Positions 30,187 to 31,378 of a stretch of 37,471 bases of DNA are shown piece after piece. The DNA lies in NCBI GenBank assembly GCA_031275395.1, contig JAISOU010000015.1:1-37471 (forward strand), written 5' to 3'. The DNA comes from Helicobacteraceae bacterium. GTDB taxonomy: Bacteria > Campylobacterota > Campylobacteria > Campylobacterales > SZUA-545. Each line of letters starts with the position of its first letter. Within the stretch, counting starts at the first letter, position 1. The notes beneath the pieces were generated by a model. It was given only the letters and a program-made list of their open reading frames with translations. It did not search any database and was not told the DNA's origin. The position numbers were made by a program, and so were the translations under genes.

Positions 30187-30420
30187 TGGTTTTATTCCTC
30201 TCATCGTTTCTCTAGCGGCATTATTTCTACGCTTGATTTTGTCTAGTAAAGGGTTTGCGCTTCGCTTCAACGCGCGAGCATAAAACCGTGCGCTTTTGCT
30301 TGCTACGGCAAGCCGTAGAGCAAAAGGAGCAAGATTTATCCCTCTCGCGCTACGCCTTCGGCTTGCCCTTGACAAGCAAAATCTAAGCGTGAGATTTGCC
30401 GCAATCGAAACGATGAGCGG
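30187..30420. repeat. Left arm of a ~235-bp inverted repeat pair (~95% identity) flanking the DUF4160/DUF2442 cassette
   Basis: Reverse complement of 30187..30420 aligns to 31144..31378 with few mismatches (e.g. ccgctcatcgtttcgattgcggcaaatctc...cttgctccttttgctctacggcttgccgtagcaagcaaaagcgca). Confidence 0.8.
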
Positions 30421-30538
30421 AAAACGATCGCAAGTGGGCGATAAACTGTAATGATAATATATGTTTATAATATGTGATTTATATGTTTTGAATATGCTTA
30501 AAATATGGTTAAAATGTATAAAATAAACATATAAGCGC

Positions 30539-30567
30539 TTGACAACTGGACGAGAATTTGCTAGAAT
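30539..30567 (+). promoter_or_regulatory. Near-consensus sigma70-type promoter TTGACA-N17-TAGAAT upstream of the DUF4160 gene, preceded by five ATATG repeats phased at ~11 bp (30459..30508)
   Basis: ttgaca at 30539..30544, a 17-nt spacer, tagaat at 30562..30567, then aaaaaggag RBS and ATG 30596. Phased (A)ATATG motifs sit at 30459, 30470, 30481, 30492 and 30504. Confidence 0.5.
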
Positions 30568-30595
30568 AATACAATATAAAAAGGAGATTAGCGGT

Positions 30596-30862
30596 ATGCC
30601 AAGTTTATCGTCGTTTTATGGCATTATTGTTTGGATGTACTACGAAATTAGCGAAAAGCACAATAAACCGCATATTCACGCTGAATATGCTGGCGAGGAG
30701 GCTTCGATAGCGCTTGACGGCGAAGTATTGAGCGGTTCGCTTCCGAAAGCAAAAATGAAATTGCTACTTGCTTGGATGGAAATACACCGCGAAGAATTAG
30801 AAGCCAATTGGTCGCTTGCTATGAAAGGCGAAGCTTTATATAAAATTGAACCGTTAAGATGA
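30596..30862 (+). CDS. DUF4160-family small protein
   Basis: 88 aa from ATG 30596 with RBS. FYGIIVWMYYEISEKHNKPHIHAEY is the DUF4160 signature. The track ORF from 30539 starts at a TTG that is actually the -35 box. Confidence 0.7.
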   Translation: MPSLSSFYGIIVWMYYEISEKHNKPHIHAEYAGEEASIALDGEVLSGSLPKAKMKLLLAWMEIHREELEANWSLAMKGEALYKIEPLR

Positions 30863-30874
30863 TAAGGAATCGAT

Positions 30875-31117
30875 ATGTTGCAACCAATGATTTTGCGCGT
30901 AGAGCCGTTATCTGACTTTAAGTTAAGGCTCGAGTACGAGACTGGCGAGATAAAACTATTTGACGCTAAACCTTTTATAAAAGGTAGCTTTTGCGGCGAA
31001 TTGGGCAATGCGTCCTATTTCAAAGCCGTTCGCGCCGTCAAAACCCACGTTGAGTGGCCACACGGGCAGGATATAGCCCCCGAAGCGTTATATGAAACCT
31101 CGCAAAGCTTAAATTAA
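30875..31117 (+). CDS. DUF2442-family small protein (partner of DUF4160)
   Basis: 80 aa. V.PL.D..L.L.F.DG....D..P...G.....L....YF..V is the DUF2442 pattern. It lies 12 nt after the upstream gene. Confidence 0.7.
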   Translation: MLQPMILRVEPLSDFKLRLEYETGEIKLFDAKPFIKGSFCGELGNASYFKAVRAVKTHVEWPHGQDIAPEALYETSQSLN

Positions 31118-31143
31118 CCCCGTATGTTAGTCCGATCGCACTC

Positions 31144-31378
31144 CGCTCATCGTTTCGATTGCGGCAAATCTCGCGCTTAGATTTTGTTTGTCAAGAGCAA
31201 GCCGCAAGGCGTAGCGCGAGAGGGATAAACCTTGCTCCTTTTGCTCTACGGCTTGCCGTAGCAAGCAAAAGCGCAAGGTTTTATGCTCGCGCGTTGGAGC
31301 GAAGCGGAAACTCTTTACTAGCAAAATCAAGCGTAGAAATAATGCCGCTAGAGAAATGATGAGAGGAACAAAACCAAA
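31144..31378. repeat. Right arm of the ~235-bp inverted repeat pair
   Basis: See the left arm. This arm abuts the 3' end of the ArdC-like gene. Confidence 0.8.

Follow-up and report, generated by a model that had tools for sequence, protein, structure and literature searches.

The locus described here lies in a 37,471-bp stretch of DNA (the window), which is the complete contig JAISOU010000015.1 of an NCBI metagenome-assembled genome of a Helicobacteraceae bacterium (proteins MDR2033325-MDR2033330). Two small genes coding for a DUF4160 and a DUF2442 protein follow a common promoter and are bracketed by two inverted copies of a non-coding repeat, in the following called the arms. The gene pair is predicted to be an intact toxin-antitoxin (TA) operon of the DhiTA family. 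It stands between ordinary chromosomal genes on the left and the remnants of what appears to be a decaying conjugative element on the right. The features are collected in Table 1.

Table 1. Features of the TA locus and its surroundings (positions in the window)
Feature	Position	Strand	Remarks
Flank outside the left arm, common with contig L111	30086..30139	+	88% identity; ends with rGCGCTT at 30133-30139, repeated at 30533-30539
Left arm	30185..30430	+	one copy of the 246-nucleotide (nt) non-coding repeat; imperfect palindrome, core 30195-30422, apex near 30309
AT-rich array with 11-bp period	30455..30532	+	directly upstream of the -35 hexamer
Predicted sigma-70-type promoter	30539..30567	+	TTGACA 30539-30544, 17-nt spacer, (TGc)TAGAAT 30562-30567
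DUF4160 gene, predicted toxin (DhiT-like, 88 amino acids (aa))	30596..30862	+	Pfam PF13711; ribosome-binding site AGGAG 30582-30586
DUF2442 gene, predicted antitoxin (DhiA-like, 80 aa)	30875..31117	+	Pfam PF10387; own ribosome-binding site
Right arm	31133..31378	-	same repeat inverted, 93.9% identical; outer end 5 nt off the stop codon of truncated ardC
ardC	31384..32187	-	3'-truncated; product ends ...LGIGSTPRV*; 5 nt between stop codon and right arm
'VirB4' open reading frame	33440-35599	-	N-terminal CagE_TrbE_VirB domain only, aa 147-310
VirD4 fragment	35916-36710	-	264 aa, profile positions 2-171 of 468

A predicted DhiTA-family operon

The DUF4160 protein matched its Pfam family with E = 5e-22 and a score of 78.3 bits (cut-off 23) over profile positions 1-64 of 65, the DUF2442 protein with E = 2.6e-10. 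At 88 aa the former has the length found in about 200 homologues, with the invariant residues F7, G9, H26, H28, G42, W60, H64 and W72. Protein lengths and the distance of 12 nt between the genes were as stated in an earlier note on this DNA; the order is toxin first with a single promoter upstream. A DUF2442 gene directly followed the toxin gene in 13 of the 13 homologous loci fetched. Toxin homologues were present on 32 PLSDB plasmids, those of Thermus included, and the toxin was about 42% identical to a DUF4160 protein of a Thermus thermophilus plasmid, possibly a different one from those tested in PMC12724237.

Members of this family have been tested in the laboratory. In Dickeya dadantii 3937 the pair is named dhiTA; both genes are co-transcribed, the toxin is toxic when overproduced and the antitoxin neutralises it (PMC8198452). 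The dhiTA operon is autorepressed with the toxin as a co-repressor (PMC8198452). In plasmids of Thermus thermophilus the same pair of domains constitutes a 'Persistence Enhancing Module' which stabilises the plasmids, and plasmids without ORF2 of the module could not be established (PMC12724237). DUF4160 is also an effector domain of the Menshen defence system (PMC12065111). Because of the Pfam matches, the invariant residues, the 13/13 linkage to DUF2442, the occurrence on plasmids and the tested relatives we concluded from the sequence that the pair is an intact DhiTA-family type II TA operon, with toxicity, neutralisation and autoregulation inferred by analogy. Thus the earlier proposal of a candidate toxin-antitoxin-like pair is supported by both Pfam domains, while the description of such pairs as functionally uncharacterised is out of date in view of the work on Dickeya and Thermus.

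The operon shares with DhiTA and the Thermus module the PF13711-PF10387 pair, the toxin-first bicistronic order, the small size of the proteins and an association with mobile DNA. It differs in that its genes are 12 nt apart, whereas those of the DhiTA comparison overlap by 3, and in having an AT-rich array of 11-bp period upstream and long flanking hairpin repeats, neither of which was seen in the homologous loci examined. The PADLOC defence-system models gave no match, and no solved structure was found by sequence. The conserved histidine cluster may point to a metal site. An interpretation of the H-I-H motif as that of a HUH nuclease recognising the flanking hairpins was not supported, the family being that of the DhiTA toxins.

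Promoter and upstream array

The predicted promoter matched the sigma-70 consensus at 11 of 12 positions, carried a TG extension and was the best sigma-70-like site in the region. At the level of sequence this confirms the earlier claim of a TTGACA-N17-TAGAAT promoter driving the pair. Its -10 region was conserved in L111, a 1,124-bp JGI contig that carries the closest relative of the antitoxin gene (see below).

The five ATATG motifs previously noted at a spacing of about 11 bp are located at 30459, 30470, 30481, 30492 and 30503, i.e. exactly 11 bp apart, and an inverted CATAT is found at 30528. Tandem Repeats Finder reported a period of 11 with 5.5 copies at 30455-30515. The array was absent from the homologous loci L111, L083, L084 and L088, which argues for a feature specific to the window locus and against a family-wide operator. 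It is probably curved DNA, an UP-like element or an operator. Candidate operators are the array itself and a AAGCGCTT palindrome at 30532-30539.

The arms

The arms aligned in inverted orientation with 93.9% identity over 247 columns, including two indels of 1 nt (BLAST E = 1.8e-105). The inverted repeats of about 95% identity and about 235 bp in the earlier note were thus confirmed with a corrected length of 246 nt. Since 15 positions distinguish the two arms and L001, an independent Logan contig, spans the junction of ardC and arm, including base differences peculiar to the right arm, an assembly artefact is unlikely and we favor a true structure. No further copy was found within the window.

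Each arm is by itself a long imperfect palindrome with 68-70% self-complementarity over about 236 nt. Because the arms are in addition inverted to each other, the locus is a nested palindrome. The palindromic nature of the single arm had been overlooked in the earlier note.

Open reading frames (ORFs) in the arms, one on the minus strand (30013-30375) and one on the plus strand (31159-31359), face outward. They were regarded as artefacts before, and we came to the same view: Pfam gave no match, no protein homologues were found for the outward frame, and the frame is not conserved, being broken by an indel in one arm. A known duplicated gene of which the arms could be fragments, a possibility raised in the earlier note, was not found via Pfam or protein homologues. 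The inward frame led to a single protein, P0129, which is another copy of the arm (see below). An origin of the arms from gene fragments was rejected on these grounds.

The form of the arms is that of a MITE (miniature inverted-repeat transposable element), i.e. small, non-coding and with terminal inverted repeats; of the 246 nt the terminal 26 are 85% complementary (30195-30220 and 30397-30422). The flanks at 30185, 30430, 31133 and 31378 were compared by eye and had no direct repeat in common, so there was no target-site duplication around either arm or the composite. Intramolecular replicative transposition would make the inner flank of one arm and the outer flank of its partner reverse complements; this signature was not seen by eye either. 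A transposase was not found among the window ORFs scanned against Pfam, and no recognisable terminal repeat of the insertion sequence (IS) or Tn3 type and no parent IS were found for the arms.

Copies of the arm elsewhere

A blastn search with a word size of 11 in 72,556 PLSDB plasmids yielded no match to the arms, and a phage collection contained no similar DNA. The exact pattern of the 24-nt arm apex was absent from genome, metagenome and viral collections. A gapped pattern of the terminal stem gave 19 chance matches, none with homology to the arm. One of these, L106 (2015-2265), is an unrelated metagenome contig with a nearly perfect palindrome of 250 nt (-218 kcal/mol), probably an assembly snap-back artefact. 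Rfam returned nothing for the arms at gathering or permissive thresholds; matches below threshold were due to chance, e.g. mir-1744 with 24.7 bits against a gathering score of 73.

A third copy was detected when the translated arm ORF, in its inward frame, was scanned against 1.84 billion protein representatives. The sole match was P0129, a 71-aa JGI 'hypothetical protein' encoded on a different contig of 46,811 bp and 92% identical to the arm translation over 49 aa. P0129 diverges from the arm reading just beyond the terminal stem of the arm. Thus the third copy appears to adjoin different sequence. No copy other than this one came out of the search that the earlier note had suggested.

Given the palindromic arm and its third copy on another contig, a dispersed hairpin repeat of MITE-like form appears a better description of the arms than a purely local duplication. 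The designation as MITE-like or foldback in the earlier note is in line with these properties as far as the arms are concerned. The families ERIC/IRU, Correia/NEMIS and RPE consist of whole-length imperfect palindromes which are non-coding, intergenic and able to form hairpins in transcripts, and in this the arms are alike. The arms are about twice as long and are not known to have sequence in common with them.

MITEs and non-autonomous mosaic transposons of the TIME type (PMC4133298) resemble the locus in that a functional module lies between inverted non-coding repeats, about 250 bp in length, whose own termini are complementary to each other. They differ from the arms, which lack a target-site duplication and a recognisable IS- or Tn3-type terminal repeat, are known in three copies and are palindromic over their whole length, not just at 38-bp ends. 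Integron attC sites and pdif modules were set aside on account of size (246 nt compared to 57-141 or 28 nt), attC also on account of orientation.

Remnants of a conjugative element

The genes to the left of the cassette are of ordinary chromosomal type: histidinol dehydrogenase, argininosuccinate synthase, ATP synthase, ExbBD/TonB, TolB/Pal and EncFtn with encapsulin, the latter ending at 29348. To the right follow, all on the minus strand, ardC, an ORF of 83 aa, virB11, the virB4-like ORF and the virD4-like ORF.

ArdC covered its last Pfam domain at positions 1-100 of 126 only, whereas its homologues run on with a conserved HDPGxHAAY(V/I)GSWI... stretch of about 40-50 aa and longer variable tails. 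The missing 3' part of ardC was nowhere in the window and in particular not at the left arm. As the right arm begins 5 nt past the premature stop codon of ardC, it is located at a rearrangement breakpoint. In 'VirB4' the domain is followed by about 390 aa rich in Cys, Tyr and Asn, with internal repeats such as C(E/D)xxHDF(L/I)VN..QER.Y, which is not an ATPase domain. The VirD4 fragment ends in a GC-rich tract coding for RPRGRGAGGGG. By their sequences ardC, virB4 and virD4 appear to be remnants of a decaying conjugative element; neither an oriT nor a relaxase gene was found among the ORFs examined. Related conjugative elements were sought via ArdC, and none of the 80 loci obtained (at most 60% identity) displayed homology to the arms.

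Several repeats accompany these remnants. A direct repeat of 39 nt at 29804-29842 and 35842-35880 is 92% identical, contains ATTCTC...GAGAAT and brackets 6 kb with the cassette, ardC, virB11 and the 'virB4' ORF. The motif also occurs in L111 (955-985) beside the 3' end of a tRNA-Arg(CCG) gene, where its orientation to the TA genes is reversed. An att-like site or an operator is a possible interpretation. Outside the 39-nt repeat there is a perfect direct repeat of 19 nt (AGTCTCTTTATTCGTTCTC) at 29707-29725 and 37157-37175, 7.45 kb apart, the copies of which could be the ends of an integrated element. Iterons or a centromere are suggested by three 32-bp units in tandem, with TTGATCAA cores, at the right end of the contig (37218-37313), and near this end a perfect 25-nt repeat recurs at a spacing of 63 bp (36790-36877). 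Between the encapsulin gene and the cassette an 84-aa ORF (29503-29757, plus strand) with a lipoprotein-like N-terminus (AGAMMSGC) and no Pfam match could code for a small lipoprotein of the conjugative element.

The palindrome CGATCG occurred 138 times in the window compared to an expectation of 28.8 ± 5.2, often as (G)CGATCGC (e.g. at 29356, 29492, 30425, 31133 and 31631), and resembles the cyanobacterial HIP1. It was missing from 29498-30424, from the interior of the cassette (30431-31132) and from 32715-36084, and dense in ardC and the 83-aa ORF (10 sites in 1.2 kb). Each arm has one CGATCG at its inner end. Far from the locus the G+C content drops to 35% in 2001-3000 with about 50% around it. 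This stretch spans an ORF of 230 aa (2335-3027, minus strand) without a Pfam match and is possibly a small foreign insertion.

Relatives without arms

At 90% identity the antitoxin clusters with a single further protein, P0122, which is encoded on L111. This contig aligned to the window at 30086-30139, 30546-30579, 30698-30716 and 30845-31122, the last with 94.6% identity across the antitoxin gene. L111 has neither arm and lacks the array of 11-bp period, the -35 hexamer and the greater part of the toxin gene, and from its sequence it is clearly a decayed orphan-antitoxin locus. Its homology on the right ends about 9 bp short of the right arm. On the left, the two loci differ by a segment of 400 bp found in the window only (30140-30539), which is bounded by the rGCGCTT direct repeat. 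An insertion in the lineage of the window and a deletion in L111 between the direct repeats, stimulated by the palindrome, both fit, because L111 itself is decayed. The more distant relative L083, with a toxin 77% identical and 75.6% nucleotide identity across the antitoxin gene, has no arms. Flanking inverted repeats were also missing from the TA loci of termite gut, as was the array of ATATG motifs.

Independent sequence from the chromosome side, the Logan contig L002, stops at position 30131, which leaves 54 nt to the left arm and 8 nt to the point where the arm-less L111 ceases to be homologous. The stop could be a branch of the assembly graph, i.e. strain variation at the junction.

These comparisons bear on a composite mobile cassette, in which the arms would be long terminal inverted repeats, either as two TIME or MITE copies or as an IS-less mobile insertion cassette, and a transposase encoded elsewhere would move the unit of arm, TA pair and arm. 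Two inverted non-coding repeats of about 250 bp around a self-contained module are what such a cassette would look like, 262-bp TIMEs have been documented to mobilise bracketed modules (PMC4133298), and the third copy of the arm means that the repeat is not confined to the window locus. Yet neither the composite nor the single arm is flanked by a direct repeat by eye, collections of genomes, metagenomes and viruses yielded no exact match to the 24-nt apex, and the plasmid collection no similar DNA. The same bracketed unit in another context with a target duplication was not found; the TA locus is arm-less in L111 and L083. Because L111, despite being arm-less, still has sequence from outside the left arm, the arms are not the expected ends of a mobile unit, and this TA-linked homology beyond the left arm argues against such a role. 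Because the right arm is 5 nt from truncated ardC, the missing 3' end of which is absent from the window, including the left arm, the arrangement is not a clean and simple insertion either. We therefore consider a composite cassette unlikely, and the claim that the whole module is a mobile cassette was not upheld for want of a target-site duplication and in view of L111 and ardC.

The earlier note had also regarded the cassette as invertible. In a programmed switch a site-specific recombinase would invert the 700 bp enclosed by the arms. Such a switch would agree with long inverted repeats around a segment that contains a promoter, and the orientation of the TA module relative to the common 39-nt motif is indeed opposite in the window and L111. 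The latter difference takes in sequence outside the left arm, hence it is not mediated by the arms. No recombinase gene was among the neighbouring ORFs that were scanned. Because the promoter and both genes are inside the segment, flipping would not turn them on or off, and 246 bp at 94% identity suit a RecA-dependent rather than a site-specific inversion. Thus the claim is not supported, and a programmed switch is highly improbable.

Folding of the arms

Each arm as RNA is predicted to fold into a single hairpin of about 230 nt with a minimum free energy of about -104 kcal/mol and z = -7.4 on either strand. This was the outcome of the structure prediction suggested in the earlier note. With DNA parameters the hairpin had -58 to -63 kcal/mol. 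The stem of the left arm includes a perfect TTGACA (30369-30374), for which the best -10 partner is poor (GAGATT); the opposite face of the stem carries TTTACT-N18-AATAAT. Terminator-like sub-hairpins followed by U-runs were present in both orientations, e.g. GCGCGAGCAUAAAACCUUGCGC-UUUUGCUU, while a U-tract directly after the full hairpin was absent in every orientation.

If the hairpin were under selection, differences between the arms should avoid the stems. There were 7-8 differences in stems compared to about 10.5 expected, a weak depletion with p = 0.04-0.15, and one clean compensatory change from G-C to A-U at columns 68/184. Selection on the hairpin was not significant and is not established by these differences.

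The arms might act as insulators at the level of RNA which block or process read-through from the ardC operon on the minus strand and from the chromosome on the plus strand, and which cap the 3' end of the TA mRNA. Owing to the inverted arrangement both incoming transcripts would carry the same stable hairpin, the terminator-like sub-hairpins with U-runs occur in either orientation, and the right arm starts immediately past the ardC stop codon. On the other hand, the missing U-tract after the full hairpin, a length of 246 nt that far exceeds the needs of a terminator, the absence of such arms from L111 and L083, the homologous TA loci used for comparison, and the lack of a firm sign of pairing selection in the inter-arm differences render insulation rather doubtful.

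Alternatively, the arms might be single-stranded-DNA elements of the conjugative element, i.e. a promoter of the Frpo/ssi type or a single-strand replication origin, each arm folding in the transferred strand into a duplex-like hairpin that recruits RNA polymerase. The Frpo/ssi promoters of plasmid leading regions (PMC11541004) likewise form long hairpins in DNA, with a -35-like hexamer in the stem, and have an anti-restriction gene of a conjugative element as neighbour. The gene beside the arms, ardC, is typical of leading regions, and an enrichment of TA genes in such regions has been described (PMC11541004). DNA parameters also give a stable hairpin, and promoter-like hexamers are found on both faces of the stem. 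In contrast to Frpo, the arms have no sequence homology to any of the 72,556 plasmids, which are presumed to include F-like Frpo carriers, and their -10 is weak. The genes of leading regions are all on the transferred strand (PMC11541004), whereas ardC and the TA genes are on opposite strands; two inverted copies cannot both be active on one transferred strand; and the element is degraded, with truncated virB4, virD4 and ardC and no oriT or relaxase gene among the ORFs examined. Such a function is therefore quite improbable.

A proposed addiction module at the edge of an eroded element

Taken together, we favor with moderate confidence the view that an intact DhiTA-family addiction module survives at the edge of an eroded conjugative element, between inverted copies of a palindromic repeat which arrived secondarily and marks a breakpoint. 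The DUF4160 toxin and then the DUF2442 antitoxin would be transcribed from the near-consensus sigma-70 promoter. By analogy with the tested relatives the antitoxin would bind and neutralise the toxin, the complex would repress its own promoter, and loss of the locus would poison the cell and thereby stabilise the mobile DNA that carries it. The carrier here would have been a conjugative element that has since decayed, as the truncated ardC, virB4 and virD4 suggest, with the TA pair kept intact.

As L111 and L083 are without arms and L111 still has the sequence 30086-30139, the arms are probably secondary to the TA module. They probably arrived after it by insertion or recombination, the right copy coinciding with the breakpoint that truncates ardC. 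As side effects the arms could fold into hairpins of about 230 nt in any transcript that crosses them and, as a substrate for homologous recombination, could lead to inversion of the core of 700 bp. The sequence of events and what the arms do to transcription, if anything, are inferred.

Several points weigh against this view. The arm is known in three copies only, the third as a translated ORF, which could be a variant allele of the same locus. Lacking a target-site duplication and a parent IS, the arms are MITE-like by form alone. The missing arms of L111 could be due to a deletion between the GCGCTT repeats stimulated by the palindrome and need not be the ancestral state. The compensatory pair and the slightly lower number of differences in stems leave room for selection on the hairpin, i.e. 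for a function, and the toxicity assigned to the pair is that of its tested relatives.

There is a small chance that the hairpin is the founder of a family of long foldback repeats which has not been described before, occurs in uncultured Helicobacteraceae and acts in single-stranded form as DNA or RNA, and that the inverted pair is a functional unit and not the debris of a rearrangement. Examples would be a device that captures and mobilises addiction modules by packaging them, or, in a new lineage of conjugative elements, a promoter or origin that works on the single strand.

On the basis of sequence the TA pair would be a further member of a family with laboratory-tested representatives and the arms an unmatched repeat of a type already known, i.e. 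long and palindromic or MITE-like. The current understanding is not overturned; the TA family has been tested in the laboratory, and modules bracketed by MITEs have been seen before. The interest of the locus would rise if its hairpins acted in single-stranded form or mobilised the pair. With it, a poorly sampled lineage gains an unmatched long-hairpin repeat, and the DhiTA family an operon with an unusual upstream array phased at 11 bp. The locus illustrates how an addiction module may stay intact as the conjugative element carrying it erodes, and it shows long palindromic repeats at rearrangement breakpoints.

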